From assembly GCA_024614665.1 (NCBI GenBank), contig GCA_024614665.1_4861.1: DNA of 64,000 nucleotides. One strand, written 5' to 3'. The position numbers were made by a program, and so were the translations under genes. This document shows, in pieces, positions 29,563 through 46,420 of this stretch; the first letter of the stretch is position 1, and each line of letters begins with the position of its first letter. Source of the stretch: a phage. The notes under the pieces were generated by a model. The model had not been told where the DNA came from, ran no database searches, and saw only the letters and a list, made by a program, of their open reading frames with translations.

Positions 29563-29574
29563 GGAGATTTTTGA

Positions 29575-32500
29575 ATGAAAACGTATCCTTACGATCCTCG
29601 GGGTGTAAATCCCGAGTGTCACTTCATCGAGGAACGTATCATCGACTCCGACAATCCTAACGATCGGGTGGTGATGCTAGATCATCGCCCGTTTTTCGAA
29701 GGATTGGTGGTAACGCTCGCCGGCTCGTCCATACCGCTTACCCGCGGGACGGACTATGAGCTGGAGTATGCTTTAACACCGTTGGACGACTCGGTGACGA
29801 CCCCGGTGTTCTGTGGGGTGCATCTTATTAACCCTAAACTGCGTGGTGCAGTGGTCTTTGAAGGCCAGATGCTCGGGGGTACGTTTTACAGTGGTCTGAT
29901 TGAGATGTTGGATGAGCTAATTAAGGCTCTCAACAATCCAACGGCTGCAGATTGGCTGCTTTTAGGTAATCGACCTTCCCTGTACCCAGCCACCCCTGCA
30001 GCGGTAGCTTGGTCAGACATGCTGAATAAAAAGTATGTTGCCTCTGCAGTGCATGATGTGGAGTTAGATGCCGGGGCGGCCAACGAGCAGATTCGTGAAA
30101 AGCTTACCGAGCTGAAAGATACGGTTCTGGCCTTAGGAACTGAAATCGCCACATTTAACTACCCCGGACACATTGCGTCCACTAACCCTCATGGGACTAC
30201 CGCGGCGCAGGCCGGTGCGCATCCTGTCAACCTGAAAACGCCAGATACTTTCCTGGCGTACGGAAAGACGTTGCGTCAGTTAACCAGCGAGGTCCGTGCA
30301 CTGGGTCTGCAGCAATCGGATATCGACAAGTACATTTCTAAATGGGTATCGAAAGAATCCAAAGGGGTGTTTAATGCGACGATATCTGGTACTCGTGCCC
30401 TGTTCCGTTCTCCTGCTGGCGAATCTGAAATTGTGTTCTCTGCTGAGGCTTTCACTCTTAAATCTAATGGCTCTGTTGTGTTGGCGTGTGGGTATGCCGA
30501 TACTACTGGAACCGTCCGGTTTATGGAGTGGAAAGCAGGCATCAATACATTACGTATTGAGTCGACTGGCAGTGCCTTGGGGATGGATAAGCTGACGCTT
30601 AACGGAACAACGTTGCTGACCACCACCGCTCTCATGGGCTATCAACAAGACCCTGGTGCCGGCGGTGGTACCGGCGGTGGTACCGTTGACCCGGATGACA
30701 ATAAACTGTACATTAGCGGGGTGAACGGCATTACTTTCACGGGTAAAGGGTCAAAAGCCGATCCCGTCGCCGGGAAGGTCACAGCCAAGCCAGCGACGAC
30801 CTCTGAACCCGGCGTTGTGACGCTAACTGATAAGCCGAGCGATGTAGTCAAAGGACAAGCAGCCACCCCAGCTTCGCTCTTACCGTACGAGGGTGATCTG
30901 TCTTCGTACGTCAGGAAGACAACACTGCTGAATAACCAGCCGATGGACACTGGTAGCCGAACGCTAACGAAAAAGGATTTGGGTCTGGACTTGGCTGATA
31001 ACACAGCTGACGTCGATAAACCACTTTCTGATTCGTTGGCAGAAGCAGTTACTGGTCTTAGTGATAAAGGCCACCATCACAACTTCGCCGATTTACAGAT
31101 CCCAACGGCTTCTCAAACAGTTCCCGGTATCGCTCGATATTCTACCAACCTAAATAGCTTGTCGGATAATCGCGGCGTTACCCCGAACGTACTGAACGAT
31201 TTGTCAAAACGTTTAGACGTAGTTGCAGCTGCGCTAGCAAACGCGAAAGAGGACACCGTGACCGATTTTGCCGCTGTGCGCGGTAAGACTTGGACTGTGG
31301 GGTCTTCACGTACCACCCTCGCCGTAACGGATTTGAATTATTTCTATCTGTTAAATGGTGCACGTAAAGAGGGGACGGTATCCGGTTCGATAGACCTGCA
31401 AACCACGCCGATGTTCCAGTGGTTCTCTCCAGATAACCGTATGGAAAGAACGTGGCAGAACGCGGTAATCAATACCGGTGCCGGTATTGATTTTAGTGGG
31501 TTTGAGGTTGCCGTCCCGGAAACGGACTACGGTGCCCAGATTGGTTTAACGACAACCGGAATGGGTGATTTGTCGGTCGTTAACCTCTTGGCGAAAACGT
31601 GGGTTCGTTGCGACTCTGGTAAGCTGCGGATTTGGGTTCGTGGCGGTGGTGCTGTTTCTGTTTATCTAGACGGTGAAATTATCGCTGCGGGTATTACAGA
31701 AGCGGGGTATCTGGAGGCGACTGTCAAGGAGGGGTGGAAGCAACACTGCTTAGCATTCCGTGCCGAGTGTAACGATAGCGCTAAAGCAGCCGCAATTCGT
31801 TTCACAATTTACGACGGTGACTTTGCGGTTGGGGCCTCGGATAAAAACACCAAAGTTGCCCGCCTGCAGGAGTTTGTTAAGACACCGAATGGTTTAAGGC
31901 ATTACCTCTATGTGAACATGATAACCGATGCGTTATATTCGCGCGCCGAACCTATTGTGGACACGGATGGTATTAACCTGGAGCGCGGGTACATTGGTTA
32001 CATTGATGTGCCCGAGACGGGATTGGTTGCAGGTACGACTTACGAGTTTGAAACGACGTTTGATTTTGGCATGGCGTCCGAACTTAAACGGCACTTCGAA
32101 ACACGTCTGGCGCACGGAGTGAGTAATACCGACTGGTCGTTGACGGATAACCCGAAAATGCTGCCGTTGAATAAGGTTGATCCGTTACCTAAACAATGGC
32201 TGTACGCGTATCCAACTAACCCGTCAGTTTCTGGGGATAACCTCGTTCGTTTAGATCGTGGGTTATTTGATTATAAATTCGTAAGTGCCACCTCGCTCAC
32301 GATTCTTCTTGCGGCGGTTGTTTCCACTGAAAACGCGTCCCCGTATTGCTGGTTTACACCAAGCAACCCGAAAGAAAATGGAATGGCGACATTCGAGGGT
32401 TCGGTGGTAATCGACACTGATTATCCTGAAGTCCCAAAAACCTCGGACGTCGAAGTTTCATTAAACTTCATGGCCCCTTCTGCTGATGGGAAAGGTAAAA

Positions 32501-33717
32501 CCAGAGTTCTGCAGTGGAGTAATTCCAAGACCAGTTTAAACTGTGGCTTTATTGCTGCGCCGTACGATAAACCAACCGGAAGAATTGCCAGCACACAATC
32601 CAGCGTTACTAATACGCTGGTTGATGCTCCTCGTGTAATCAAGAGCGTGGAAGTTCAGTCGCCTGACTGTTTAGACTATCTCCCGGTTTCAATCGCTAGC
32701 GAGTTCGCAGCCATTGGTTCACGCTGGCTTATTCGTTATCGCTATATTGTTGATACGCAGATACTGCGAATATCGACGATTAGTAAGATAGGTGGCCAGG
32801 CTTCGGCAACTGTTCGTGAGATAGAATACGACATTCCGTTTGACGCGATTGATTATTTTAAAGGTGGCGCTTTATCGATTAGTGTTACTGGCATCGAAAC
32901 TGGTGAAGGCGTCACAATCAACCACGGTTTGATGGACCCCTCCACAACAGAAGTAGATTTAAATCGTTTCCATTATCTACGCTCATTATTTGAGTCGTAT
33001 ATTGAGCGTTCTCCAGACACCCAGTCTTCTGGGCATGAGGAGATGTCGATATCAACCGTCACGTTCGCGAACTTTGGAGATAACGTCGATAACCCGGTTA
33101 CGGAATACATCACGTTGTCTGCTGCAGGCGAGGGTTATCCGGAACTTGCACCGAATGGTAAACTCCCTGCACCGTTTTACAAAGGACTGCAGAAACGTGG
33201 TGCTCCGCTACTTGAGTCGGCTCCTACAGACTATACGTCTAACGGTGGTGAATGGAAGTACGGCTTTATGCGGGCTTATCGCCCAACTCAAAATGAGCGT
33301 TTTGTGTCGGTAAATGGGACAATGCTCTCTAACTACCCTGGATACATCATCGTGGGTAGTGAGAAAATTCCGGGTAATGTTATACCTTTCAGTGCATCGA
33401 CAACAGCTGTTCAGATATCTGGGACTCTTGCCCGCACGAAACCGATGCAGCCAATTCACATCGTGTTCGTGCCTCCGGAAGGTTCTGTGCCGCCACTGCA
33501 AGCGAAGTTCACTATTAATGGTGTGGGCAGTAGTGGTAATCCGTTGTTCGTGATTACTGAAACGACACCGGTGGAACTTCGCACAGGTGGCGAGACGGTC
33601 CTCATTGAGAAGCGTAATCCATTCCACATCCCCACCAGGACATGGGATTGGATTTTACAAACGTTGGATACTGAACGTAGAAACGAAGGCAACAACTCGG
33701 GTGAGTGGGCCTCTTAG
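29575..33717 (+). CDS. tail fibre-like protein (1380 aa)
   Basis: AAGGAG RBS; ATTSEPGVVTLTDKPSDV and GIARYSTNLNSL fibre-type motifs; Gly-rich GAGGGTGGGT linker. Confidence 0.75.
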   Translation: MKTYPYDPRGVNPECHFIEERIIDSDNPNDRVVMLDHRPFFEGLVVTLAGSSIPLTRGTDYELEYALTPLDDSVTTPVFCGVHLINPKLRGAVVFEGQMLGGTFYSGLIEMLDELIKALNNPTAADWLLLGNRPSLYPATPAAVAWSDMLNKKYVASAVHDVELDAGAANEQIREKLTELKDTVLALGTEIATFNYPGHIASTNPHGTTAAQAGAHPVNLKTPDTFLAYGKTLRQLTSEVRALGLQQSDIDKYISKWVSKESKGVFNATISGTRALFRSPAGESEIVFSAEAFTLKSNGSVVLACGYADTTGTVRFMEWKAGINTLRIESTGSALGMDKLTLNGTTLLTTTALMGYQQDPGAGGGTGGGTVDPDDNKLYISGVNGITFTGKGSKADPVAGKVTAKPATTSEPGVVTLTDKPSDVVKGQAATPASLLPYEGDLSSYVRKTTLLNNQPMDTGSRTLTKKDLGLDLADNTADVDKPLSDSLAEAVTGLSDKGHHHNFADLQIPTASQTVPGIARYSTNLNSLSDNRGVTPNVLNDLSKRLDVVAAALANAKEDTVTDFAAVRGKTWTVGSSRTTLAVTDLNYFYLLNGARKEGTVSGSIDLQTTPMFQWFSPDNRMERTWQNAVINTGAGIDFSGFEVAVPETDYGAQIGLTTTGMGDLSVVNLLAKTWVRCDSGKLRIWVRGGGAVSVYLDGEIIAAGITEAGYLEATVKEGWKQHCLAFRAECNDSAKAAAIRFTIYDGDFAVGASDKNTKVARLQEFVKTPNGLRHYLYVNMITDALYSRAEPIVDTDGINLERGYIGYIDVPETGLVAGTTYEFETTFDFGMASELKRHFETRLAHGVSNTDWSLTDNPKMLPLNKVDPLPKQWLYAYPTNPSVSGDNLVRLDRGLFDYKFVSATSLTILLAAVVSTENASPYCWFTPSNPKENGMATFEGSVVIDTDYPEVPKTSDVEVSLNFMAPSADGKGKTRVLQWSNSKTSLNCGFIAAPYDKPTGRIASTQSSVTNTLVDAPRVIKSVEVQSPDCLDYLPVSIASEFAAIGSRWLIRYRYIVDTQILRISTISKIGGQASATVREIEYDIPFDAIDYFKGGALSISVTGIETGEGVTINHGLMDPSTTEVDLNRFHYLRSLFESYIERSPDTQSSGHEEMSISTVTFANFGDNVDNPVTEYITLSAAGEGYPELAPNGKLPAPFYKGLQKRGAPLLESAPTDYTSNGGEWKYGFMRAYRPTQNERFVSVNGTMLSNYPGYIIVGSEKIPGNVIPFSASTTAVQISGTLARTKPMQPIHIVFVPPEGSVPPLQAKFTINGVGSSGNPLFVITETTPVELRTGGETVLIEKRNPFHIPTRTWDWILQTLDTERRNEGNNSGEWAS

Positions 33718-33728
33718 GACGGACTGCC

Positions 33729-33795
33729 TACGGGCGGGTAGTCCGTAGGTAAACCGCCCTTCCGTTATTGGGAGGGCGGTCTCCGTTTTATTACA
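33729..33795 (+). terminator. tandem hairpins / intrinsic terminator after tail fibre gene 2
   Basis: CCTACGG-N9-CCGTAGG then ACCGCCCTTCC-N7-GGAGGGCGGT followed by CTCCGTTTTATT. Confidence 0.55.
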
Positions 33796-33812
33796 GATTA
33801 GGAGTGTTTGCA

Positions 33813-36800
33813 ATGCCGAGAGAAGATGCGGCGCAGTTTAACGGTACGCTCAGTACCGCTACTTACCCGAACCGTTATTCGGCGGTCATTCCCGTCGAAG
33901 CACCGTTCTATCGCATCGGGTTAACGTTAACCGTTACCGATAAAACAACCGGAACCAAACGCAAGTTAATAGAAGGTCTTGATTATTTCTTAGGACATTA
34001 CTTCCAGGAATTAGCCGAGGCTGAGAACGATGCAATATACGGCAGCATAATGCTGCTGAACGCCACAGAGGTAGAATACGAGTTGTTGTCGGTTGGTCGA
34101 CAGTATCGCATCCCTGCTTCTGAAATCGGCAAGTATCTGGTTAAGACAGATATGAAAGACCCGCGTAACTGCGATTGGTCTGAGCTGATGAAATATCCGC
34201 CGATTATCTCGCCAATCGACCCGCCAAAAGACCTCGAAGAAGCGATTCTTCGCGATGAAATCGTAAAGGCGTTGGAAGATATCCGTCTGGGTATTTTAGA
34301 GCGCGCCCACGAGCTGGATGAGGCTTTTGCCGAAGTTACCGATTTGATTTATCAGAACGGTAAGCAGGTGTTTGAAGATGAGATGTATCAGCACCACCTG
34401 GTTAAAAACGCACACGGTTACACCTGCGGTGATATTGGCGCTCTCCCGGTACTCGGCAAAGCCGTAGATGCGACTAAGGCATTCGGACGTACCCTGGCAG
34501 AGCTAGTGACGTTAATGTCTACCAGCGGCATCCAACAGAAACACGTTGACATGCTTCTGGATAATACCCTGGGTGATTTACTGGGCCGTATGCGTGTTCT
34601 GAATAACGACGCGATTACGTTCCAAACAACGTCTGGTCACGTTATCAGCATGAAGGGTGAGAAGTTCATCATCACCTCGACAAAACCGCTGGTATTAAAA
34701 GCTGACCAGGATAACAACGAACCGGGTATCGCTACGGAGTTCAGTGCTGGTCTGAACACGCTTTGGGTTCACTCGGGTAAAGCAGGTGACAAGTGGGGCG
34801 ATTATGATGCGGGTGTGCTTGCACCTGTGTATAATAGCGTGTATCTCGTTACACCGGATATGGTTAAGATGTACTTGACCTCGGTGAAGATACTTCCAGC
34901 AAACGCCTACTTCAAGTCCAGCGACACGTTGAAGATTTATGGCTCTGGTAAAGAAACAAACAAAGTTTACATGAATGCGGAGCTGCCTGCAGCAACCACA
35001 ACTGTGCAGGGTTTGTTTGCGATTACTAACCTTTCGGCGTCCGCTGCATCGTCCACAGCGATTTCCCAAAAAGCTGTTACTGACTTGAAGAACAAACTCG
35101 ACGGATATGTGGACGACACGTATACGGTCAACGGCAAAGGGTTTGTGTTAGACGAAAACGGTCAAATGCATTTAACCTTAACCGCGTCGGATTTCGGTAT
35201 TGAGAAGATGAACAATACCGGGCCGCTGGAGAAACCGGTTACTAATGCGTTGCGCACCGTGCTATCAGGCAAGGCACTCTCAACACACACCCACACCATT
35301 GCTGATCTCGATGACGTGCCGTACGCATCCACATCTGTTACAGGTTTGGCTAAACTGTGGGATGCTATTGACACCACAACAGATAAGATGGTTACTGCCC
35401 GCCAGGGTTTCTTGCTCGAACAGAAGATCGGTACACTGAACGACAAGATTGCTACGTTGTTGCCAGCATGGACCGTTGGCGGATCGTCGTACGGTAACAA
35501 TAACTTCTTGCCTATACCTGTCCAGGGGAACTACGAAGGGTACACCAAAAACCAAACTTGGCAAAAAGGACTGGCGCGTTACGAGGCTGGTAAGGTTTAC
35601 TCGTTGCGTAATGGTTCCAACGGTAACGCCCCTGCTGACTGGGCTATCTATTACGCCTATGCTGATGTGTCGCCAAGCAATACGCTGGAAAATATGCAGC
35701 AGACGTCCGTACGTTATCACCCCGCTGGAATGTCGGCGTATCCTGGGGTGAATCTGGTTGCTATTCTGATTACCGGTACAGATGCAATGATCTGCTTAGG
35801 CAGTGACGGTGCGTATTACCTGGTCATCTTTGACGGCACCATTGACCATGCAAAACATCATCGTGTTGTTAAAGTTTACTTGGGCGATTACCGAAATGGT
35901 AACGCGGCCGGTGTGATTACAACCGCACCATGGGTTGCCGATCCATCAACAAACGATTTGATCGTTTGCAACGATCGGGTTTATCTGCTCCGTACTGTGC
36001 TTACCTCCGGTGACTATTTCGTGAGTATGCGTAGCATCGCACTCGACGAACTTAATCTGGGTGGTAGCAACACGTTTGTGGCGGATGTGTTAACGGGTGG
36101 GATGTTAACGTCGGGAGATAATATCTACTTGCGTCAGGGTCAGAAACGTTCTGATACAGATGTGTTGGTAGCGCCAGTAACACAAATCTACGCAGACGCA
36201 TCGGCGAAGTGGAATAGTGCGCGAAATTTCGTCCATGGTCCGGAATGTAATCACGCGATTGCTGTGGATGGGCTGAACTTTCGTGTTGGTTTAACGCCAA
36301 CAGTCTGGTTTGCTTCTACTACAGGGCAAACTATTAACTTTAAACAATGGGTGTCAAGCTTTGTTGTTGATTGCAGTTCAATGACGGTAACGCTGGAAGG
36401 GGCTGATCGATTCCCTATTGTGGCTGATCTTACCGCGGTTCGTTATAACGGTGGTGCTGAGATTGGGATTCCGAGCTGGAAGTGGGGCGAAGGTCAAGCT
36501 AATAACCGAACCTTTGCAACATCGCAAGACAAGTATATTGTTTCGCAAGGACTTTCAGGCGATCGCGACCTAATGCCTTATGTCAGGATTACAACGTTAG
36601 ATGACGGTGTGAGTTGGTACGAGTACCTGTCGTGCGACTACAACTTCACTGCCAGAAGTTTTAGTGCGGTAATGTTAAACCAAGGACGTGGTTCTATCTA
36701 CGAGCTGGGTATGGCGTATCCGCTGACTCTGGGAGCGAATTCCAGACTTATCTGGTTGTCACAACCGCGTACCCGTTTGGCAATTGAAGTTGAGTTTGAT

Positions 36801-38996
36801 CCGAACACCACTTACTCAGGTAAGGCGGGGTATGGCCCAACTAACAATCGTCGTGTAGTAGATTCTATCACGTATGAGAATCTGTCGCAGATGTGCCACA
36901 TTGTTACACCGGCGTCGCCTGGTACAGAGTTAAACGGCTGGTATTGCACAGGACCAGAAACATTCCCTTACCACAACGTTTCCGGCACTTTCACGATTCA
37001 TGCCGATCGATTGACGCTGTCACAAGCTGAATGGAATAAGATGAAGCAGATGATCATCGACGGAGCACCGGCAGGCGCTGCGAATGGTTATGCTTCGGAA
37101 TTTATCCTTGCTGCAAATAACGCAGGAAAGGCATTGTTTTCCGTTTGGTTCATCGGCATCGGAACGGCCACACCGCTCACATTAGCACAAGTAGCATGTA
37201 CACGTACTGTGAACAATGTTAACGTGTTAGATATCTACTACTTTACACTGAAACCAACAATCAGCAACGGGCAGGTAACATTCCCCGCAGCGATATTGGC
37301 ACTGTTTGACTTCTATAACAACCTCGTCTATGGCTTGAACTATGCTACGTTGGGAGAGATAACGGGAGGAAAAACACGCCGGCCGGGACAACCTACCATG
37401 GTGTCGGTAGATGGTACGCAGTTCGGGTTGTATCTTCCACACACGTTAACCTTGCGCCAAATTGGCGACTTGGGTGCGCTTAACTACGGTGTCGGTCTTA
37501 CGCTGTCTAATGGTACCTGGACGCGTTCTTCTGCCCCGCGCGGCATTGGACGCATGGCACCATCACACACTCCAGTCAGCCCAGCTTATCTGGCTCATCG
37601 TGATCAGGTGATGCTACACAACTCATCTCTCGACTACGTCTATTGTGGTGGTATCGCAATGTCGTCGAGTGATTTTGTCGCGGCTCCTAATTTTAGTGGC
37701 CCGACTGAATCGGTCGTCATTGCTGGTGTGGAAACAGCCGAAGGTTGGCTGGTATATGTGACTGAGGAAGTTAACCTGCGTTTCGGCTCGAGCACTTATA
37801 AGCTGCCTACGTGGTATATTGACCTCAGCGCAGCGTTTCCAACAAACCATCAGAACCGGACATTCTACCTGCACGCCAAGGTAGAAAATGGTACACCGAA
37901 GTACGTAATGGACGTGATTCAACATCCAGACACTGAAACGGAACTCTATATCGGGTATGTTAAAACGGGCTCGTCGCGAGTCGTCGAGACTAATGTCGAA
38001 CATGTTAAGCGCTTGGGTGCGGTGAAACAGCTGTTGGAACACGCAGCAGTTGAGAATAAGCACGATGTGGAAGTGGGAAGGGATGCAGCAACGGGCAGAC
38101 TGGCACCATTACGTAAAGAAGCGATGGGTCCTTTGTCTATCGATGGCAAGAAAGGCTATCTGGATAGTCAGTTGCTTTATACCGTATCTGACGCACAGCG
38201 TCGCGGTAAAGCGATGGTGTCCAAACGTTTCGAAGGCTTGAAAACCTTGCCGGTGTTTACTCAGGCAAACAAGTCGGGGGCGTTTTGGAAACATCCTACA
38301 ACAATTGCGACGGTAACGGCCGATGAGAACGGTGAAGCGGCATCGTTGGGAATGGAGTGGGTAGGTATTCCAACGCCCGCCTTCTCTCCGACCACAACAT
38401 ACGCGATGGTGATGATACAAAGTAAATTCGTCGTCCCAGGTACACCTGGAGTGGAAACAACCTTTAATGTCAACATCGCCCCATGGGAGACGGTAGAAAT
38501 GTTTTTCTACAACGTCGAGGCGGAAGGTAAGGATGTTAACATTGATGAAAGTTCAGAACTGTTAACGCCGAGACCACATACCGTGTATCACGAACAGCAC
38601 TCTCTGCCCGCAGGCGTGCCATGTACGTTTACTTTCGTTGGTGTGTTGAGTTCCTCAGCGCTTGAGATGGCCAACCAGCATATTTGCTCTTGGCTTTTCA
38701 CGGACGCGGGGGGACTACCAATCACCACCGATCTTTCGGATAGTAAGATTCAAATCTTTCCAGCGGCGGGAGAGACCAACGGCACACCAGTTGTTTTTAA
38801 CAGCCGTAGCTACACGTTTGTGGATGTGGCGGGTGCAATTCCGGTTGTTACCACGGGCGCTCAGGGTTTATACCCACCACCGATCGTGGCGTGGGATGGC
38901 GATGATCTTACGTTAACGATTGCGCACGATTGGGTGAACGAGAGAGGATGGCAACAGGCTAATGTTATCCAGGTCAATCTTATGTTCCGTACCTAA
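33813..38996 (+). CDS. tail fibre-like protein (about 1727 aa)
   Basis: ORF track 33768..38996; start moved to ATG (MPRED...) with AGGAG RBS because upstream codons lie inside terminator hairpins; ATTTVQGLFAIT and STHTHTIADLDDV motifs. Confidence 0.75.
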   Translation: MPREDAAQFNGTLSTATYPNRYSAVIPVEAPFYRIGLTLTVTDKTTGTKRKLIEGLDYFLGHYFQELAEAENDAIYGSIMLLNATEVEYELLSVGRQYRIPASEIGKYLVKTDMKDPRNCDWSELMKYPPIISPIDPPKDLEEAILRDEIVKALEDIRLGILERAHELDEAFAEVTDLIYQNGKQVFEDEMYQHHLVKNAHGYTCGDIGALPVLGKAVDATKAFGRTLAELVTLMSTSGIQQKHVDMLLDNTLGDLLGRMRVLNNDAITFQTTSGHVISMKGEKFIITSTKPLVLKADQDNNEPGIATEFSAGLNTLWVHSGKAGDKWGDYDAGVLAPVYNSVYLVTPDMVKMYLTSVKILPANAYFKSSDTLKIYGSGKETNKVYMNAELPAATTTVQGLFAITNLSASAASSTAISQKAVTDLKNKLDGYVDDTYTVNGKGFVLDENGQMHLTLTASDFGIEKMNNTGPLEKPVTNALRTVLSGKALSTHTHTIADLDDVPYASTSVTGLAKLWDAIDTTTDKMVTARQGFLLEQKIGTLNDKIATLLPAWTVGGSSYGNNNFLPIPVQGNYEGYTKNQTWQKGLARYEAGKVYSLRNGSNGNAPADWAIYYAYADVSPSNTLENMQQTSVRYHPAGMSAYPGVNLVAILITGTDAMICLGSDGAYYLVIFDGTIDHAKHHRVVKVYLGDYRNGNAAGVITTAPWVADPSTNDLIVCNDRVYLLRTVLTSGDYFVSMRSIALDELNLGGSNTFVADVLTGGMLTSGDNIYLRQGQKRSDTDVLVAPVTQIYADASAKWNSARNFVHGPECNHAIAVDGLNFRVGLTPTVWFASTTGQTINFKQWVSSFVVDCSSMTVTLEGADRFPIVADLTAVRYNGGAEIGIPSWKWGEGQANNRTFATSQDKYIVSQGLSGDRDLMPYVRITTLDDGVSWYEYLSCDYNFTARSFSAVMLNQGRGSIYELGMAYPLTLGANSRLIWLSQPRTRLAIEVEFDPNTTYSGKAGYGPTNNRRVVDSITYENLSQMCHIVTPASPGTELNGWYCTGPETFPYHNVSGTFTIHADRLTLSQAEWNKMKQMIIDGAPAGAANGYASEFILAANNAGKALFSVWFIGIGTATPLTLAQVACTRTVNNVNVLDIYYFTLKPTISNGQVTFPAAILALFDFYNNLVYGLNYATLGEITGGKTRRPGQPTMVSVDGTQFGLYLPHTLTLRQIGDLGALNYGVGLTLSNGTWTRSSAPRGIGRMAPSHTPVSPAYLAHRDQVMLHNSSLDYVYCGGIAMSSSDFVAAPNFSGPTESVVIAGVETAEGWLVYVTEEVNLRFGSSTYKLPTWYIDLSAAFPTNHQNRTFYLHAKVENGTPKYVMDVIQHPDTETELYIGYVKTGSSRVVETNVEHVKRLGAVKQLLEHAAVENKHDVEVGRDAATGRLAPLRKEAMGPLSIDGKKGYLDSQLLYTVSDAQRRGKAMVSKRFEGLKTLPVFTQANKSGAFWKHPTTIATVTADENGEAASLGMEWVGIPTPAFSPTTTYAMVMIQSKFVVPGTPGVETTFNVNIAPWETVEMFFYNVEAEGKDVNIDESSELLTPRPHTVYHEQHSLPAGVPCTFTFVGVLSSSALEMANQHICSWLFTDAGGLPITTDLSDSKIQIFPAAGETNGTPVVFNSRSYTFVDVAGAIPVVTTGAQGLYPPPIVAWDGDDLTLTIAHDWVNERGWQQANVIQVNLMFRT

Positions 38997-39043
38997 CAGA
39001 TAGCGCTATGGGGCAAGGAAGCCCCAATCAAAGGAGTTTGGCA

Positions 39044-40246
39044 ATGGCCGAAATCATTTATCAGTACCCGCTCGACCTTACCGGGACATTAACGTCGAAC
39101 GCCGTTACGCGGCGTATTACGTTAGGTTCTGGTAAAGTTAACCGGGCTTTTGCATTTCCTGACGGAGCTTTCTACGCGGATACTTTCCGCTTAGCGGCTG
39201 CGAACAAACCGGGTGTCTACCCGTACAAACGTGGTACAGACTACGAGCTGATTTTTGCACATACTGCATATCAGAAAATGACCAAGAACCGCGAAGTGGT
39301 CATGGGTGTGGTGGTAACTAACTCGGCCATTCCTACAGATATCGAAGTCTCTGCGCAAGTCGTTGGTGGTTTTCAGTCTGCGAACGTCGAAGGCATCCGA
39401 CAAGCGATTGCGTCGTTGAAAATTGAAGACCGCGTGGTGGACTTCAAGGATCTTCGGAACGTACCCGATACGTTCCCGTCCGCACCGACGTATAAAGACC
39501 TTGGCGATATCTACGGTTTTGAGTACATCATTACCGTGCTCGCGGGGATTAAAGATGCGATTAACTCCGGCTCTGCAGTACAGCTGGAAGAAATTAAAGG
39601 TATTCTGGACGGTCTGAAAAACGACTTCCTCGATGCCTTAAATACCCACATCAACGCCGAAGGTAACGTACACAATCTCGACATTCATCAGGTTAATGGC
39701 CTGACGGAGACGGAGATTCGTGCTCTGATTCAAAGTGTACAGACTGCCATTGACGCCACTATCAGAGATATCGGCGACTTAAGAGCAGCAGACACGGCGT
39801 TGGGGCAACGCATCGATGCAGTTGTGGCTTCGTTAGCCGCGTGGAACGACCAGCTTAATGTAGTTGCTCAAAATTACCAGAAAATGTCGTTAGCATTAGC
39901 TAACCTTAATTCTCTGGTGTTGCAATTACAGAAGAAGGTTAATGATCTTCAGTCTGCGCTGAATGAAACAAATCAGCGTGTCACGGATCTTGAGAATCAA
40001 GGCAAAGACTTCCAACAGCAAATTGATAACCTGCAAGGACAAATCAACAGTCTTAAAACTCAGGTTGTAAACAACACCAACGCAATTTCGCAGGCAAACC
40101 AGAATCTGGCGAACCATGCGGCTGCGGATAACCCACACCCGAATTACCTCCATAAACAGTATGGCGGTGTTGTGCAGGCTGCTGTTCACGTCAACAACAA
40201 CCTCACCTCGCGCGACGATGTTCAAGCTGAAGCGGGTACTAAGTAA
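39044..40246 (+). CDS. tail fibre-like protein with C-terminal coiled coil (about 400 aa)
   Basis: ORF track 39008..40246; ATG (MAEIIYQ...) with AAGGAG RBS; shared N-terminal module (GTDYELIFAHTAY); heptad-like Q/N/L-rich segment. Confidence 0.7.
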   Translation: MAEIIYQYPLDLTGTLTSNAVTRRITLGSGKVNRAFAFPDGAFYADTFRLAAANKPGVYPYKRGTDYELIFAHTAYQKMTKNREVVMGVVVTNSAIPTDIEVSAQVVGGFQSANVEGIRQAIASLKIEDRVVDFKDLRNVPDTFPSAPTYKDLGDIYGFEYIITVLAGIKDAINSGSAVQLEEIKGILDGLKNDFLDALNTHINAEGNVHNLDIHQVNGLTETEIRALIQSVQTAIDATIRDIGDLRAADTALGQRIDAVVASLAAWNDQLNVVAQNYQKMSLALANLNSLVLQLQKKVNDLQSALNETNQRVTDLENQGKDFQQQIDNLQGQINSLKTQVVNNTNAISQANQNLANHAAADNPHPNYLHKQYGGVVQAAVHVNNNLTSRDDVQAEAGTK

Positions 40247-40253
40247 CTTGTTT

Positions 40254-40300
40254 ACGAGCCGGACTATGTTTATGGACATAGTCCGCTCGTTCTACTTTTT
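40254..40300 (+). terminator. intrinsic terminator between tail fibre module and Cys-rich peptide genes
   Basis: long imperfect hairpin ACGAGCCGGACTATG...CATAGTCCGCTCGT followed by TCTACTTTTT. Confidence 0.6.
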
Positions 40301-40311
40301 AAGGAAGCGTA

Positions 40312-40704
40312 ATGGCGATATCTATTAAAGACGTCAGAAACCGCGTCCAGATAGTCGAAGCTAACATGGCGACAGGCCCCCGTATCGACGCGCAAGTGGC
40401 CTCTAAAGCCCATAACGCGGCAGACCGATTTGGGGGTTGGACGAAAACACAGCTAGATTGCGGCGGGACATGTTCTTGGACGTGCTCTAACGGTTGCTCG
40501 CATGGCTGTTCGAGCTGTTCAGGAAGCTGTTCTGCTTCTTGTATCGGTAGCTGTTCTTCGACGTGTGGCGGTAACTGTTCTGGTTGCTCTGGTTGTTCTG
40601 GTGGTTGCAGTAGTAGCTGTACCGGTAACTGCACAGGTGGTTGCGGTGGCTCTTGTTCCGCAAACTGCTCCGGGGCCTGCTCCGGCGGCTGTTCAGGTCG
40701 CTAA
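40312..40704 (+). CDS. Cys-rich repeat peptide 1 (130 aa), candidate radical-SAM substrate
   Basis: AAGGAAG RBS; about 50-aa leader-like N-terminus then core with Cys every 4th residue (CSNGCSHGCSSCSGSCSASC...). Confidence 0.7.
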   Translation: MAISIKDVRNRVQIVEANMATGPRIDAQVASKAHNAADRFGGWTKTQLDCGGTCSWTCSNGCSHGCSSCSGSCSASCIGSCSSTCGGNCSGCSGCSGGCSSSCTGNCTGGCGGSCSANCSGACSGGCSGR

Positions 40705-41110
40705 GGGGGATTAAATGGCAATTGGATTAAAAGAACTGAATAACCGATTAAACACGATCGATGCAAACGCTCTAAAGAATACCACGAATGTGCAAAACTA
40801 CATTCGCAATAAAGCTACGAATAACGCCGACTTGTTCGCAGGTCAAGGCCGTTCGCACTATGACTGTGGTGGCACATGCTCTTTTAGTTGCTCGAGTTGT
40901 TCTGGCGGATGTACTGGGTCTGCGACAGGTGGTTGTGGGTCGACTTGTTCGGCAAACTGTGTATCAGGCTGTAGCAGCAGCTGCACGGGCTGTAGCTCTT
41001 CGTGCTCTGGTGGTTGTAGCGGCACGTGCACAGGCAGCTGTTCTGGGGGTTGTGGTAAATCCTGCTCCGCAAACTGCTCAGGTGCGTGCTCTGGTGGTTG
41101 TTCAGGTCCT
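40480..41110 (+). repeat. periodic Cys-codon region encoding the cores of Cys-rich peptides 1 and 2
   Basis: 12-nt (4-codon) periodicity of TGT/TGC; Ser and Gly codons vary synonymously between repeats, so periodicity is at protein level. Confidence 0.6.
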
Positions 41111-41119
41111 AACTCCTAA
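40715..41119 (+). CDS. Cys-rich repeat peptide 2 (134 aa), paralog of peptide 1
   Basis: AAGGGGGA RBS; conserved leader and DCGGTCS core entry; same C-terminal CSANCSGACSGGCSG ending as peptide 1. Confidence 0.7.
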   Translation: MAIGLKELNNRLNTIDANALKNTTNVQNYIRNKATNNADLFAGQGRSHYDCGGTCSFSCSSCSGGCTGSATGGCGSTCSANCVSGCSSSCTGCSSSCSGGCSGTCTGSCSGGCGKSCSANCSGACSGGCSGPNS

Positions 41120-41134
41120 CTGACGGAGGCTTAT

Positions 41135-41341
41135 GTGATCAGTCTCAAGACTATTCGAAACCGTCTCGTTACGGCAGAAGGCTACATTACAACCGCGCAG
41201 GCAAACAACTATATCGCTAACCAGGGCACCGTGTCAACCACGAACAACCTGGCTGGTTTACCGCTTTCTCACTATAACTGTAATGGTGGGTGTAGCTGGT
41301 CCTGCAGCGGAAGCTGTAGCCGTGGAGCGGGGAATCGATAA
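41135..41341 (+). CDS. Cys-rich repeat peptide 3 (68 aa, short paralog)
   Basis: GTG start with GACGGAGG RBS; leader related to peptides 1 and 2; short core NCNGGCSWSCSGSCS. Confidence 0.55.
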   Translation: MISLKTIRNRLVTAEGYITTAQANNYIANQGTVSTTNNLAGLPLSHYNCNGGCSWSCSGSCSRGAGNR

Positions 41342-41363
41342 CAGAAAACGTTCGGAGTATTAA

Positions 41364-42251
41364 ATGAAAAACGATTTGCATCTTGCGTATAAAACCACAT
41401 TCAACCACCCGCTGCATCTATCTTCCCCAGATTCGGTGCGTGCACACCTCGCTGACAAAGTCAGACTGATTGCACAGATTCCTGGTGAGTGGCCAAAGGT
41501 TCGTGGTCGCTTCTTGACCGACAAGAAGAACTACACCGTAGAAAATACGTTTAAGATCCGTGATATGGTTGCAGAGGCCATCGTTATCTTTAACGGCGAT
41601 GGTAACTCTCGCGGCGTGTTGGTTGACGGTAAGTATTTCTTCAGTGAAGGGATTCTGAACAACAGTGTCGATTTAGAACTGATGTTTACACCGTTTGACG
41701 AACTCGAAGCAAAACCGATGGCGCGCCGTTGGTGGAGTCCGGACTATCTGGGCTCGTTCCCTTACTACTTTGTACTGGTACCTGCCGATACGGAAACGTA
41801 TTTCGACACCGAACCGTACATCGATATCGAGGGATATAAAGAACTCGGCATCACCCGTTTAGCGGACATGATGGCGTATAGCTATAAGTTCGTGTGGGAT
41901 AAAAAGCGTTCTGTCTGGTATGCGCTGACTGACGATTTTGAAATCACCAAACGTATTCGTAAGCCGTGGATGCAACACCTGGTTCAAACCCGATATGGGG
42001 ATTACCCGGCGACAGAAGCGGATTTGAGTAAGCTGGTAAGCTTCCTCTTAACGAAGGTGGATTTAACGAAAGAAGAAGCAGAAGCTGTTTCTGAGATTCG
42101 TAGTCGTTCGGTTACGTTGGCCGATTTGAAACGCTTGAACGAAAGACATGCCGACCTGAACAAAATTTTAGCTGCCTATCACGACCCGATGTTACTGGTG
42201 CCTGGCGCTAATGTAGACGAAGATCCTTTATTCGCCATTGATTATATTTAA
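41364..42251 (+). CDS. hypothetical protein (295 aa) within the radical-SAM cluster
   Basis: ORF track; co-directional, tightly packed between precursors and radical-SAM genes. Confidence 0.6.
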   Translation: MKNDLHLAYKTTFNHPLHLSSPDSVRAHLADKVRLIAQIPGEWPKVRGRFLTDKKNYTVENTFKIRDMVAEAIVIFNGDGNSRGVLVDGKYFFSEGILNNSVDLELMFTPFDELEAKPMARRWWSPDYLGSFPYYFVLVPADTETYFDTEPYIDIEGYKELGITRLADMMAYSYKFVWDKKRSVWYALTDDFEITKRIRKPWMQHLVQTRYGDYPATEADLSKLVSFLLTKVDLTKEEAEAVSEIRSRSVTLADLKRLNERHADLNKILAAYHDPMLLVPGANVDEDPLFAIDYI

Positions 42252-42273
42252 AAATATACTGGAGCAACCTGCA

Positions 42274-43188
42274 ATGACAGATCAAGTAGAATCCAGGATC
42301 TCGTCTGAACTGTACGACAAACCGTCAATTCTGTCGGTTGTCGCAACTTCTAAGTGTAACTTAGACTGTAGCTTCTGTGGAGGGGCTTATTACATGGATA
42401 GAGAAGATACTTCTCGTGAGTTTCAACGTGAAGAGATTCTCTCGATTTTAGAGAAGAATCCGGATATCGGTGAAATTCATTGGACGGGCGGTGAGCCGCT
42501 GTTAGCGCAGCGCAAGATTGAAGACTTCGTGAACGAGTTGAAGGAGTCTCATCCGAACCTCCGTCATCACATGTACACCAACGGTTTAAAGATGCGTAAA
42601 TCACATCTGCCGTTGCTGAAACAGTTCGACCTTATCTTTGTGTCCATTGACGGCTACAAGAAGTCGGAACGTCCGTTTATGAACTTTGTAAACGGTGGTA
42701 ATCACGAAGCGCTGGAAGTGCTGTACGAGCTGGACAACTATTACACCTGGGGTGTGATGACGCGTGACCAGTTAGGTGATAAACGCTGGTACGAAGATTT
42801 CATCGAGCTGCACCGAGCAATCTATCATTACCGTCCAGGTGGTATGTCGTTGCTGTTTGATGCGATGATGCCGAAACCGTTATCGCCAGACCACGTCATG
42901 AACTTCATGTACGGGTATTGGAAAATACTCGACAATATCGAACGCCTTAACATGCAGAACGATTCTGAGTGTGGGCTTGCGATCAGTAAAATGTTCGATA
43001 CTGAGTGCAACACGTGCAGTGAAGTGCTGTGGCTTAACGCCGACGGTACGCAGGAGCAAATTCAGAACGCCCCAGAGATATTGGAAGTCGGCTGTAATCG
43101 CCTGGCGCGTTCTATCGGCGTTGATGCGTATAACTACATCAACCGTGTAATTTCTGCTAAGCGTAAACGGGCGGCGAACAATGAGTAA
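42274..43188 (+). CDS. radical SAM enzyme (about 304 aa)
   Basis: CNLDCSFC (CxxxCxxC) near N-terminus; GGEPLL; C-terminal Cys cluster (ECGLA...ECNTCSE...GCN); ATG with CTGGAG RBS (ORF track starts 42238). Confidence 0.75.
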   Translation: MTDQVESRISSELYDKPSILSVVATSKCNLDCSFCGGAYYMDREDTSREFQREEILSILEKNPDIGEIHWTGGEPLLAQRKIEDFVNELKESHPNLRHHMYTNGLKMRKSHLPLLKQFDLIFVSIDGYKKSERPFMNFVNGGNHEALEVLYELDNYYTWGVMTRDQLGDKRWYEDFIELHRAIYHYRPGGMSLLFDAMMPKPLSPDHVMNFMYGYWKILDNIERLNMQNDSECGLAISKMFDTECNTCSEVLWLNADGTQEQIQNAPEILEVGCNRLARSIGVDAYNYINRVISAKRKRAANNE

Positions 43189-44509
43189 CAGCGAACAGCA
43201 AATCCAGTACACACCACGCACGTATCAGGTTGTGACTAACCTGTCATGTAATCTGGACTGCGAATACTGCTACGAGCGTAAATATCCTCGTAACAACAAA
43301 GTAGCAGACGTGATTGATTTTATCCACGCTTGTTTCGAGCGTGATAAAGATATCCCGAACGTTGAGGTCATCATCGATATCATCGGTGGTGAGCCGTTCA
43401 TGCAGCCTAAACTTCTTTTGGCGGCCTTTGAAACCGCAGAGAAGTTATGCGCAGAACACAATCGCCCGTATATGTTCAGTATCTCCACGAACGGTACACT
43501 TCTGGACCGTCCGCTGAACAAAGAAATTATCGAGCGCTGGAAAGACAAACTGTCTATTGGGGTCTCCATCGATGGTTTACCTGAAGTCCATGACAAATAT
43601 CGTATCTTTACCACGACGCGTGAAGGGTCGTACGAAGCTGCGGTACGCGGTTACAATTATCTGAAGAGTGTTGGCATCGCTGAATTAGGCGTAAAGGCGA
43701 CGTTTACGATCGATACATTGCCGCACTATGCCGCCAGCATGAAATCGTTAATTGACATGTCCGGCGGTGGTACCATTTCTGGTAACGTAACGTACGAAGA
43801 TATCCTGCCGCGCCATATGGCGTTGGATATCGCGAACCAGATGATGGACGTGATGGACTACTGGATTGAGAAGGGTCTGCACACCAACCCGCGTAACACG
43901 ATTACACACATCATCCCGGATGGCCTGAACTTTATGGCAACTTGGGACCCGGATTGGCGTGACAAACTCTTACATGACGACTCTGTTCGTCTCGACCCAG
44001 AACGCCTGAAACCGTACTGCGGTACGTTGACGCACATGACCTGTCTCGGCTTTGATCGCAAGATTTACGGTTGTAACCGTTTCATGTCCACGGTAACTTC
44101 CCGTTCTGCTGTAGCAGAACTGGTCGGTCGTGAGTTTGTGAGCCTGGACGGTGGTAAGTTGTTAGAAGAGATTCAAACACAGTACACCAACTACCCAGAA
44201 ACCTGTTTAGGGTGTCCGATGAAACACAGTTGCGGTAGCTGCGCAGCAGCATCGTACGAAAACGGTGAAGGTACACTGGAAGACCGTAAAGCGTATCACG
44301 CCGAGCGTCGTCAGTGTGGTTGGACTACTGCGAAGCTGATGGCGGCGGAATATTGGTATCAGAAAACTGGTACGACCCGCGCATCAGATTTGCATGATAA
44401 ATCCATGTGCTATTGTTCACGTTGTGTACGCCAACGTGCTGAAGCAGAAAAATTACAAAACGGAGCCCAGAATGAAGTCAATACTGATTCACAATTTTAC
44501 GAAGCGTAA
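43181..44509 (+). CDS. radical SAM enzyme with SPASM-like C-terminal domain (442 aa)
   Basis: CNLDCEYC (CxxxCxxC); IGGEPF; C-terminal CLGCPMKHSCGSC resembling the SPASM auxiliary-cluster motif; start overlaps stop of preceding radical-SAM gene by 8 nt. Confidence 0.8.
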   Translation: MSNSEQQIQYTPRTYQVVTNLSCNLDCEYCYERKYPRNNKVADVIDFIHACFERDKDIPNVEVIIDIIGGEPFMQPKLLLAAFETAEKLCAEHNRPYMFSISTNGTLLDRPLNKEIIERWKDKLSIGVSIDGLPEVHDKYRIFTTTREGSYEAAVRGYNYLKSVGIAELGVKATFTIDTLPHYAASMKSLIDMSGGGTISGNVTYEDILPRHMALDIANQMMDVMDYWIEKGLHTNPRNTITHIIPDGLNFMATWDPDWRDKLLHDDSVRLDPERLKPYCGTLTHMTCLGFDRKIYGCNRFMSTVTSRSAVAELVGREFVSLDGGKLLEEIQTQYTNYPETCLGCPMKHSCGSCAAASYENGEGTLEDRKAYHAERRQCGWTTAKLMAAEYWYQKTGTTRASDLHDKSMCYCSRCVRQRAEAEKLQNGAQNEVNTDSQFYEA

Positions 44510-45038
44510 ACTGCACTTGGTCGATCGCTTCCTGCGCAAAAGCAAGCTGTACAATGTGCACGCAATTGTGGCAGGGGAAGACTTCACTGATGAAATCCAA
44601 AGCCTGTTGATTAAATACGGGCTGAATGTGATGATCCCGGTCTACTGCGTTGAGAAAGGACACGAGTCTGTCGCGGAAATCGAAAAGCGCAACCCCGGCT
44701 TTGAGAAGCGACTGCTTGCATACCCACGCCACAAAATCGAACTGCTACGTCACTCTATTGATGAAGCCAGTCCTGAAAGTTTAGTGGCTTTGGGCTTGTC
44801 TTTCCCGCGGATGCGTATTCGTAACTTACGCTCCAATAACCCGGTTGACGCTTATTACACAGAGCGTCAAATCTTCGAAGAACACCTGCTCCCGCAGTTG
44901 GAAGAAGAAGAGCAACACAACATTTCTCTGTTGTGGGCCGGTAACCTCGATCAGGACTTCCAGATGCTGGACTTCGGTTTGTTGTTAGAACTTGGCCTGA
45001 TTGAGGAGGACGAATGTCTGTTACTGACAAAAGCTTAA
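44472..45038 (+). CDS. hypothetical protein (about 188 aa)
   Basis: ORF track 44394..45038; ATG (MKSILIH...) with ACGGAG RBS; overlaps 3' end of SPASM gene. Confidence 0.5.
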   Translation: MKSILIHNFTKRKLHLVDRFLRKSKLYNVHAIVAGEDFTDEIQSLLIKYGLNVMIPVYCVEKGHESVAEIEKRNPGFEKRLLAYPRHKIELLRHSIDEASPESLVALGLSFPRMRIRNLRSNNPVDAYYTERQIFEEHLLPQLEEEEQHNISLLWAGNLDQDFQMLDFGLLLELGLIEEDECLLLTKA

Positions 45039-45685
45039 CGAACGAAGAGATCCGCGCCCGTTATTTCCAGCGTGATTTGCCGATTGATCGTCACGGTAAT
45101 TTCATGGAACGAATCGGTGCGCAGGATCAGGGCCGTACAGGCTTTTGCGCTCTGCTCCATTATCATCTCATCGAAGGGATGTCTGATAAAGAAGCCCTGG
45201 CACGCATGAAGCTGTATGAGATGTCGGAGATTGAAGCTAACTTCACATTGAAACGCACGAAAGAGTTTATTGCTAATGTGCTGGAGATTGACCTCGACGA
45301 AATTCGCGGGAATCTGAAATCTACCGCACGTTACATTTACGAAGACGTGCAGAAGATGCTGTTGGAGCTTGACCACCGCTACGAAGATGAGCGTCATGGT
45401 TATATCGAGTTTGAAGGTAGTCACTTTCAAGCCGATGAATCGTCGCGTACCATCCTCGGTCAATACATTCAGGCAGATACCGCACCAGAATACTGGCTCG
45501 ATACGCTGAATACTAAGCACAGTCCGTTTACAGTAGCCCAATGTAAAGCGTTGCTGGCCGCTATTGTTGCACGTGACCAAGTGTTGCACTCAGCAATGGC
45601 AGATAACAAACGCCATATCCGTGAGTTAGCTGAAAAGCGCGATTACACTGGATTAAAAACATTGTCCGAATCTCTCGGCATTTAA
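45014..45685 (+). CDS. hypothetical protein (223 aa)
   Basis: GAGGAGG RBS; followed by bidirectional terminator. Confidence 0.6.
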   Translation: MSVTDKSLTNEEIRARYFQRDLPIDRHGNFMERIGAQDQGRTGFCALLHYHLIEGMSDKEALARMKLYEMSEIEANFTLKRTKEFIANVLEIDLDEIRGNLKSTARYIYEDVQKMLLELDHRYEDERHGYIEFEGSHFQADESSRTILGQYIQADTAPEYWLDTLNTKHSPFTVAQCKALLAAIVARDQVLHSAMADNKRHIRELAEKRDYTGLKTLSESLGI

Positions 45686-45687
45686 GC

Positions 45688-45745
45688 AAAGAAAATAAAG
45701 GCCCTACCTCCCTTCGGGGAGGTAGGTACCTTATTTTATTTCTTA
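45688..45745. terminator. bidirectional intrinsic terminator closing the radical-SAM cluster
   Basis: A-rich run, hairpin CCTACCTCCC-TTCG-GGGAGGTAGG, T-rich run; between convergent genes ending 45685 and 45766. Confidence 0.7.
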
Positions 45746-45765
45746 GAAACTACTAAGTTGTTTTG

Positions 45766-46293
45766 TTAAACGAATCCGTCCAGTTCACCGTTGGTGGTGC
45801 TCAGGTCAGTTTTAACGATTGGCTGCGTTACAGTATAAACTGCAGGGCTGCCAGGTCGGTATTTAATGTGGCCTGATTTCACCTTAACAGTGATGACTTT
45901 CTCACCACTGCTGCCGTCCACGCGTTTAATGATGAGTTCAGACAATGCAAACGCATCTTCCGTTTTACCGGCGGCAATTAGATCTGCGTTGACAAAAGCA
46001 AGCACTTCTTCATCGGTATCCCATTCTGCCTGGTCAGCGGTAACTGCCTTCTCACCGATGATGTCCGATAAATTGAGGCGGGTATAATGCAGCTCTTTCA
46101 CGCCAGTAAAGTTAGCGGATTCCGCGGTGGCGGTGATGGTGAGATTGGTGTTGCGAGTGTCTCCAGAATCTGCTGGTGAATAGTCAGCAACAGCGCCGAA
46201 TGTAACGTCAGCAGCAGTTAACGGACTAGGCAGTCCGCTGTTTGCAGCATTAAACAGCGCGACGAGTTGGTCTTTTGCAGAGATGACTGCCAT
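45766..46293 (-). CDS. short family-A paralog (175 aa)
   Basis: AAGGAAA RBS; LHYTRLNLSDI motif and C-terminal TNGELDGFV shared with long family-A proteins. Confidence 0.6.
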   Translation of the reverse strand: MAVISAKDQLVALFNAANSGLPSPLTAADVTFGAVADYSPADSGDTRNTNLTITATAESANFTGVKELHYTRLNLSDIIGEKAVTADQAEWDTDEEVLAFVNADLIAAGKTEDAFALSELIIKRVDGSSGEKVITVKVKSGHIKYRPGSPAVYTVTQPIVKTDLSTTNGELDGFV

Positions 46294-46420
46294 GGTTGTT
46301 TCCTTATAGTAGGTTTGTGGTGCATACTAAATCGTTCTAAAAAAAATACATAGTGGGCTTAATATGACAGTAAAGTTGACTGTTAAACGAGAAAATTATT
46401 TACCACTGAAAGGATACCTT

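Follow-up and report, generated by a model that had tools for sequence, protein, structure and literature searches.

The region 40312-46293 of a 64,000-nucleotide stretch of phage DNA (GenBank assembly GCA_024614665.1, contig GCA_024614665.1_4861.1; the whole stretch is referred to as the window) contains three tandem short genes for cysteine-repeat proteins, named P1, P2, and P3 here, followed by a cassette with two radical S-adenosylmethionine (SAM) enzymes. P1-P3 are probably free-standing, minimal forms of a C-terminal Cys-repeat module of phage tail fibres, matured by the radical SAM cassette and structural in function. This reading was favoured because tail-fibre-type proteins of other phages end in the same module beside the same enzymes. 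The segment from 39000 to 46400 shares 98.5-98.9% identity with SPN3US, a jumbo phage of Salmonella, and with phages closely related to it (genus Seoulvirus), and the names gp160-gp170 follow the SPN3US numbering transferred to the window, with JN641803 as the SPN3US reference record.

P1, P2, and P3 are conserved genes

P1 (40312..40704, plus strand) encodes a 130-amino-acid (aa) protein with a 49-aa leader (40312-40458) and an 81-aa core containing 21 Cys. P2 (40715..41119, plus strand) encodes a 134-aa protein with a 50-aa leader (40715-40864) and an 84-aa core containing 20 Cys, and P3 (41135..41341, plus strand, GTG start) is a 68-aa short form in which a 48-aa leader precedes the 20-aa core CNGGCSWSCSGSCSRGAGNR with 4 Cys. 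An N-terminal segment of ~48 residues is common to the three proteins, the cores all open with C-x-G-x-C-S-W-x-C, and each protein matches the function-unlabelled profile phrog_6085 (E 8.9e-40, 3e-41, and 2.7e-24 for P1, P2, and P3, respectively). In every phage examined, the P1 and P2 cores carry 20-23 Cys (20-21 in the window), mostly with a period of 4; they consist almost entirely of Ser, Gly, Cys, and Thr, with 0-1 charged residues each, and 'CSAN' units are present in both proteins. The P3 cores have 2-4 Cys and 1-2 charged residues across phages.

P1, P2, and P3 are real genes, as established by their conservation in seven phages, the bias of differences to the third codon position, their Shine-Dalgarno sites, and the shared phrog_6085 match. 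They are intact and conserved in all related phages examined; the seven phages supplying leaders were an SPN3US-like phage, SPAsTU, Asesino, phiEaH2, Wellington, EarlPhillipIV, and CR5, with leader-leader identities of 27-75%. Differences between P1 and its orthologues were distributed over the three codon positions as 16/7/67, and those between P2 and its SPAsTU counterpart as 14/10/74, corresponding to 66 synonymous and 15 nonsynonymous codon changes. The Shine-Dalgarno sequences are AAGGAAG 5' of P1, AAGGGGGA 5' of P2, and GGAGG located 5 nucleotides before the GTG of P3.

None of the three genes is annotated in its own frame in JN641803, where the only coding sequence called is SPN3US_0166, an out-of-frame open reading frame (ORF; 40788-41123) overlapping P2. 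Three conserved genes are thus omitted from the SPN3US reference record or replaced by an out-of-frame call, and the proteins are presumably missing from the databases used in published virion proteomics, one of which contained 273 SPN3US sequences. The peptides predicted from trypsin digestion of the leaders include VQIVEANMATGPR and IDAQVASK from P1, LNTIDANALK, NTTNVQNYIR, and ATNNADLFAGQGR from P2, and LVTAEGYITTAQANNYIANQGTVSTTNNLAGLPLSHYNCNGGCSWSCSGSCSR from P3.

The first ~30 leader residues form a predicted amphipathic helix with an a/d-like hydrophobic pattern. In the AlphaFold2 model of P3, calculated with alignments, two low-confidence helices (residues 4-17 and 20-29) are followed by disorder, with a predicted local distance difference test (pLDDT) score of 55. 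A hidden Markov model (HMM) of the leader found P1-P3 and no further kin among all window ORFs. A word-seeded leader-profile search of 5.8 billion proteins returned mostly P3-type proteins on jumbo-phage-sized or short contigs, and no nonphage relative of the leader was found in it. Two metagenomic P3 relatives, P0223 (210 aa) and P0228 (147 aa), extend for 80-140 nonrepetitive-looking residues past a short Cys core, so that the 'peptide' may there be the N-terminal part of a larger protein, an assembly or frameshift artefact being possible.

The Cys-repeat module is fused to tail-fibre proteins beside the same enzymes

The module is composed of a short helical or shaft segment, a junction of the approximate form N-x-x-[L/F]-x-G-x5-[Y/F]-x-C-x-x-x-C-S-W-x-C, and Cys-X3 repeats that consist almost entirely of Cys, Ser, Gly, and Thr. 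P1-P3 contain the junction motif only, with neither a long shaft nor an N-terminal tail-fibre attachment domain. The last ~17 leader residues, e.g., KATNNADLFAGQGRSHY, resemble the tail-fibre shaft motif 'NA-x-x-L-G-G-x5-Y/F' found in P0244, L012:7937-10138, and L035, and in P1-P3 this segment stands directly before the Cys domain as it does in the fibre-fused relatives; the motif is, however, short and has weak statistics alone.

Homologues of gp163 with 32-39% identity were found in a Deferribacter abyssi prophage (L009), on a 213-kb contig (L010/L011), and on a 140-kb contig (L012). The cassette of the prophage lies directly after a gpJ-like tail gene and that of the 213-kb contig after a T4 gp13-like gene. 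Each of the three loci has another radical SAM gene, and each encodes a protein that terminates in the junction and Cys repeats described above. The second enzyme of the prophage is a full-length gp164 homologue (E 1e-14), and a gp165-like gene was confirmed for the prophage (L009:4411-5163, E 1e-9) and for the 140-kb contig (L012:5182-5955, E 3e-12). The module protein of the prophage has 302 aa with HxH/YTE fibre-type repeats and contains '...KVDKATNADQLGGQAGSYYRCSDCSWTCSSSC...', and that of L010 has 568 aa and contains '...NVNAVTLGGQPPDFYTCGGSCSWSCLSTC...', the P2 counterpart of which is '...NKATNNADLFAGQGRSHYDCGGTCSFSCSSC...'. A precomputed match to Pfam PF27846 (tSAM_targ_Cxxx_rpt) is present on the 568-aa protein.

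A scan of IMG/VR with the gp163 alignment yielded 446 relatives. A Cys-repeat ORF of 100-568 aa with up to 92 Cys was present at 76 of the 79 loci kept, nearly always just upstream and on the same strand. Strongly supported tail-fibre N-terminal domains were obtained in three module proteins, namely, L032:5031-6182 (Pfam Phage_tail_fib, 1.8e-40; PHROG tail-fibre families, ~1e-55), L039:3985-5337 (PHROG tail fiber, 2.7e-32, with phrog_6085 at residues 356-444), and L040:4345-5502, a collagen-like tail fibre according to PHROGs that ends in '...AETLNGQAPDYYRCANGCSWTCSSGC...'. The L035 protein carries '...SNADMLEGQHGDYYRCSGCTWTC...' and obtained no family label. In the module proteins of other phages, phrog_6085 falls on the C-terminal parts. 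A dedicated radical SAM/SPASM enzyme (gp163 in the window) always accompanies the module, and the nearer clades add a second radical SAM enzyme and a gp165-like protein.

An exhaustive HMMER search of 1.84 billion representative sequences with a profile of the leader and P3 recovered jumbo-phage homologues and two proteins of 211 aa each, P0242 and P0243 (E ~1.6e-4); the module, preceded by other sequence, begins in both at approximately residue 95. On the 3' side of P0243 lies a cassette that includes two radical SAM genes, and the N terminus of P0243 has a weak PHROG tail-fibre match (3.6e-5). The same search returned a Cys-free collagen-like protein with ~8 'VENANKLGNVAAxxYALKTDT' repeats, six of which match leader profile positions 23-48 (E 8e-4). 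Three further hits, P0235, P0241, and P0245, were set aside as multirepeat false positives.

A distant group with 25-27% identity to gp163 (e.g., L045:4732-6195, L050:5094-5960, and L067:4990-6213) mostly has one detected radical SAM gene. In the partner proteins of this type, an N-terminal part of ~90-116 residues precedes CXX(X) repeats with 44-92 Cys. An 'F..LK..V..E..RR' motif is common to these N-terminal parts, which match no known family.

The cassette encodes two radical SAM enzymes and a gp165-like partner

The radical SAM/SPASM-type maturase gp163 (43181..44509, plus strand) has a CX3CX2C motif beginning at residue 24, which leaves no N-terminal extension for a RiPP recognition element (RRE; RiPPs are ribosomally made peptides with post-translational modifications). 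Its best NCBIfam match is TIGR04115, the CXXX-repeat maturase family (3e-36, 125.6 bits against a cutoff of 350), and the second best is PapB (1e-32, 113.6 bits against a cutoff of 340, residues 22-357); the QhpD family is also among the matches (3.8e-15). The closest solved structures are CteB (5wgg) and anSME, the latter being among the nearest solved relatives of both gp163 and gp164. Invariant C-terminal Cys columns are present among the gp163 relatives (alignment A6).

The second radical SAM enzyme, gp164 (42238..43188, plus strand), matches Pfam Radical_SAM (E 1.1e-15) and has its CX3CX2C motif at residues 40-47; following the SaP7 annotation, its true start is likely the ATG at 42274. 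The gp165-like protein (41364..42251, plus strand) has 295 aa and belongs to phrog_8030. No credible Pfam, NCBIfam, or PDB relative of the gp165 family was found, including in a comparison of the family profile with PDB sequences and Pfam. Searches of Pfam, NCBIfam, and PHROGs detected no PqqD/RRE domain in any cluster protein and no protease or transporter in the cluster.

The strong genomic association suggests that the Cys repeats are the substrate of the enzymes, and gp163, gp164, and gp165 would then form the maturation machinery of the module. By analogy with the thioether-forming relatives of gp163, the Cys of the repeats would most plausibly be modified in the reducing cytoplasm into many small sulfur-to-carbon (thioether) rings. 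Because the P1 and P2 cores have no Asp or Glu, the acceptor cannot be either of these residues. Through such cross-linking, a flexible stretch of low complexity would become a stiff rod, insensitive to redox conditions and independent of disulfides. The N-terminal ~48 residues could serve enzyme recognition, oligomerisation and attachment, or both. Instead of being exported, the product would become part of the neighbouring tail/baseplate fibre apparatus (gp167-gp170), with P1-P3 presumably retaining their leaders and being incorporated into the virion.

The leaders are unrelated to the N termini of the DUF7941 head proteins

A sequence-only reading of the window had proposed that the leaders are akin to the N termini of 'family A', the proteins of a minus-strand paralogue array at 49189-63975 together with gp160, and that the leader may therefore be a virion-docking segment. 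The sequences and positions it quoted were accurate: KELNNRLNTIDANALKN corresponds to residues 6-22 of the ORF 40715-41119, and the three quoted family-A N termini map to 63210, 60488, and 46278 of the minus strand. The resemblance did not exceed chance. When the window leaders were aligned with residues 1-45 of the family-A proteins, the best Smith-Waterman score (BLOSUM62) for any pair was 24, compared with a mean maximum of 28.6 (standard deviation, 3.4) for shuffled leaders, 96% of which reached at least the observed value; unrelated N termini of window proteins scored up to 34 in the same comparison.

Profile-profile alignment and structure prediction, the two checks that this reading had named for itself, both refuted the kinship. 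Alignment of 17 leaders with 17 family-A N-terminal domains (nine window paralogues and eight gp160 orthologues) gave a probability of 0.78%, with 'MA' alone aligned; hhalign run locally returned P = 0.83. Reciprocal unfiltered hmmsearch runs (--max) over all window ORFs produced no cross-matches, the family-A HMM taking every family-A ORF and no peptide, and Pfam DUF7941 had no match in P1-P3 at E <= 0.1. The AlphaFold2 model of gp160, calculated with alignments, is a globular alpha/beta domain (pLDDT 93) in which an N-terminal helix (residues 5-16) is followed by strands and forms an integral, high-confidence part of the fold, in contrast to the two weak helices and disorder of P3. A Foldseek search of the gp160 model against the PDB gave no match at E <= 0.001. 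The leaders and the DUF7941 N termini are thus unrelated in sequence and in predicted structure, and the likeness comes down to a Met-Ala start and a short helix in the product of a nearby gene.

Family A is Pfam DUF7941 and corresponds to the published SPN3US 'paralog family B' (PMC5694885). The main text of that study lists gps 83, 138-154, 161, and 237 as members, whereas its tables give gp160 and not gp161 (PMC5694885, Ali et al. 2017). A tailless mutant contained all members, which were assigned to the head, and each capsid was estimated to contain more than 300 copies of gp160 and likewise of gp141 (PMC5694885). A family of head proteins offers no argument about the docking of the Cys peptides, and a docking segment shared with it is unsupported.

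The short family-A gene gp160 (45766..46293, minus strand; Pfam DUF7941 E 9.5e-13) does follow the cluster, as had been pointed out, but it lies on the opposite strand, convergent with the cassette and behind a bidirectional terminator hairpin (45703..45726, both strands) with a perfect 10-bp stem, 7 GC pairs, and T-runs on both strands. It lies outside the cassette. A short DUF7941 gene stands near the cassette in some lineages only, the SPN3US-like and Erskinevirus genomes among them; neither the Wellington flank nor any of the distant cassettes has a DUF7941 gene.

Weighing of the alternatives

That the leader and the DUF7941 N-terminal segment are homologous and form a shared docking segment is extremely improbable. 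Both begin M-A-(I/V) followed by a short amphipathic helix, and gp160 adjoins the cluster in the SPN3US-like and Erskinevirus genomes; against this stand the failed alignments and searches described above, the integral position of the gp160 helix, the convergent orientation and patchy occurrence of the gene, and the fact that family A comprises head proteins while the neighbours and relatives of the cassette are tail proteins. The suggestion that the peptides are cross-linked structural components without a classical RiPP leader loses the basis it had in that kinship, but it gains support of another kind from the tail-fibre relatives. A classical RiPP cluster is unlikely; in it, the leader would only guide the maturases and then be removed, and lysis would free the cross-linked peptides to act as a diffusible effector (antibacterial, anti-defence, or metal-binding). 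Such a cluster would account for a tandem of three short ORFs whose leader is conserved and whose core is repetitive, for the proximity of gp163 to the peptide maturases TIGR04115, PapB, and CteB, and for the absence of gp161-gp165 from virions, as expected of biosynthetic enzymes. Yet the searches of Pfam, NCBIfam, and PHROGs detected no immunity gene, protease, transporter, or RRE in the cluster; the cassette lies within a tail-fibre module in three unrelated phage lineages; and elsewhere the module is built covalently into tail-fibre proteins 250-570 aa long, in which the preceding part cannot be a disposable leader. The number of Cys is moreover kept at 20-23 across phages despite the divergence of the leaders, which suggests a length-constrained structural element. 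Less probable still is that the Cys-X3 repeat binds metal or Fe-S clusters in the manner of a metallothionein and that the radical SAM proteins carry out another modification, e.g., Cys-to-formylglycine conversion or epimerisation. The extreme density of Cys with Gly/Ser spacers, the place of anSME among the nearest solved relatives of both enzymes, and cores without an Asp/Glu acceptor for PapB-type links all agree with it. Against it, the target motif of anSME, C/S-x-P/A-x-R, is absent from cores with 0-1 charged residues; the families that gp163 matches best are peptide maturases that form thioethers; and the conserved CSW junction would be left unexplained.

Several observations weigh against the favoured tail-fibre reading itself. 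Three short precursors in tandem that share a conserved leader and have a low-complexity core match the classic RiPP cluster layout as well. The cores have none of the Asp/Glu acceptors used by PapB and gp163 scores far below the TIGR04115 and PapB cutoffs, so that the chemistry is extrapolated. Published proteomics did not detect gp161-gp166 in SPN3US virions (PMC5694885), gp161-gp165 of the cluster among them, and the virion mass spectrometry gives no support for P1-P3, which were presumably outside the protein database searched. The first ~30 leader residues are found in this jumbo-phage clade only, and a leader-only HMM matched the fibre proteins weakly and over the last ~17 residues only, with a best score of 13.9 bits (E 0.005 in a set of 1,635 sequences). 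The claim of homology is for this reason restricted to the last ~17 leader residues and the core; it is borne jointly by the junction, the first part of the core, and the enzyme genes conserved alongside. On long Cys runs, scores may be raised by low-complexity composition, and part of the phrog_6085 score may have this origin.

Neighbouring genes and other features of the window

The cassette continues with a gp162-like protein (44394..45038, plus strand; phrog_7988), which in the SPN3US annotation begins at a position equivalent to 44471, and a gp161-like DUF4376 protein (45014..45685, plus strand; Pfam DUF4376 E 8.6e-9) with a weak PHROG 'tail protein' match (E 0.001). Directly 5' of the cassette lies the gene for a gp167-like virion (nonhead) coiled-coil/fibre protein (39008..40246, plus strand) with matches to PHROG virion structural and tail families. 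Between the gp167 stop codon and the ribosome-binding site of P1, at 40256-40288, lies an imperfect hairpin of ~12 bp that has one bulge and a T-rich run after it; it was not reported by the consensus scan and may be an attenuating terminator that sets the expression level of P1-P3.

Three huge plus-strand ORFs (1234, 1380, and 1742 aa) at 25858-38996 are located directly 5' of the cassette region. The last corresponds to gp168 by its SPN3US match and the other two to gp170 and gp169 by position. The three constitute the published baseplate/tail-fibre 'paralog family C', and gp168-gp170 were proposed as baseplate/tail-fibre candidates (PMC5694885). Judging from their position, the tail-fibre module ends with the cassette. 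The SPN3US virion proteome includes gp167-gp170 without a head flag (PMC5694885; gp167 in Suppl. Table 1). Compared with the N-terminal regions of the relatives fused to fibres, gp167 showed similarity at the level of coiled coils only and no homology; a split fibre made of gp167 and P1-P3 is therefore not claimed.

Within family A, the C-terminal motif (T/L)NGELDGF-x is common to gp160 and the products of 54847-56265 and 58222-59679 (minus-strand ends at 45766-45790, 54847-54870, and 58222-58245). Among the gp160 orthologues, T166, G168, E169, L170, and F173 of the motif are nearly invariant (alignment A3), and it may be a shared C-terminal interaction motif. The array also contains a tandem-duplicated three-gene unit on the minus strand, 58222-59679/57212-58210/56279-57202 versus 54847-56265/53845-54834/52943-53878, with 128 identities in 339 columns and 135 in 319 for duplicated pairs. 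After the duplication, a 68-codon remnant (52755-52958, minus strand) resembles the N terminus of the 54847-56265 product (family-A HMM E 1.7e-4).

Significance and comparison with known systems

Research on radical SAM/SPASM peptide maturases has dealt almost exclusively with their production of secreted natural products, and the stability of tail fibres is credited to trimeric folds, chaperones, and metal ions. The occurrence of the maturase with a fibre-fused Cys module, with 446 IMG/VR relatives and at least three strongly labelled fusions, suggests that fibre parts are covalently cross-linked by enzymes in the reducing cytoplasm. More broadly, and only tentatively, many phages may build part of their tail fibres in a RiPP-like manner, the Cys-X3 module becoming a poly-thioether 'ladder' that SPN3US-like phages would produce as three free-standing mini-fibres, overlooked so far because the reference annotation misses or misframes their genes. 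If this is true, it would be the first radical-SAM-matured virion structural element. The proposed kinship with family A can be dropped, but following it up has connected two fields in a way that is open to testing, and directly so in SPN3US, a model phage for genetics and proteomics. Full-text literature searches covering SPN3US, CXXX-repeat/TIGR04115, phage RiPPs, and tail fibres did not find the system described.

The closest counterpart is the CXXX-repeat radical SAM system (TIGR04114/TIGR04115, PF27846), in which long runs of Cys at every fourth residue likewise stand beside a radical SAM/SPASM maturase; target and maturase genes are adjacent here too. TIGR04115 is the best-scoring family for gp163, but the score remains well under its equivalog cutoff, and the peptides, at 17.1-18.5 bits, show the repeat pattern of TIGR04114 and narrowly miss its cutoff of 20. 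The present system further differs in being phage-borne, located in tail modules, often fused to tail fibres, and equipped with a second radical SAM enzyme and a gp165-like partner. In the literature searched, no description of the CXXX-repeat product was found and TIGR04115 was mentioned in passing only.

In the ranthipeptide system of freyrasin, PapB makes Cys-to-Asp thioethers in six CX3D motifs of PapA, with the unit CSAND (PMC9413430). The radical SAM/SPASM enzyme and the repeated units of 4-5 residues are alike, down to the 'CSAN' units of P1 and P2. The Cys-X3-Asp/Glu acceptor motifs are, however, absent from the nearly uncharged P1 and P2 cores, gp163 falls far short of the PapB cutoff, and the products are proteins of 68-134 aa or parts of proteins of up to 568 aa, unlike a small secreted peptide. 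The subthreshold TIGR04115, TIGR04114, and PapB scores together with the lack of the PapB substrate motif indicate a phage tail-associated variant and not a member of these families.

CteB and QhpD are thioether-forming enzymes, and the QhpD family is among those matched by gp163. The similarity to QhpC/QhpD is distant, there is no common substrate motif, and QhpC is an enzyme subunit and not a virion protein. In this pair, however, the radical SAM/SPASM enzyme introduces thioether cross-links into a protein subunit that stays in its complex, which provides a precedent for the modification of a structural polypeptide in place of a released product.

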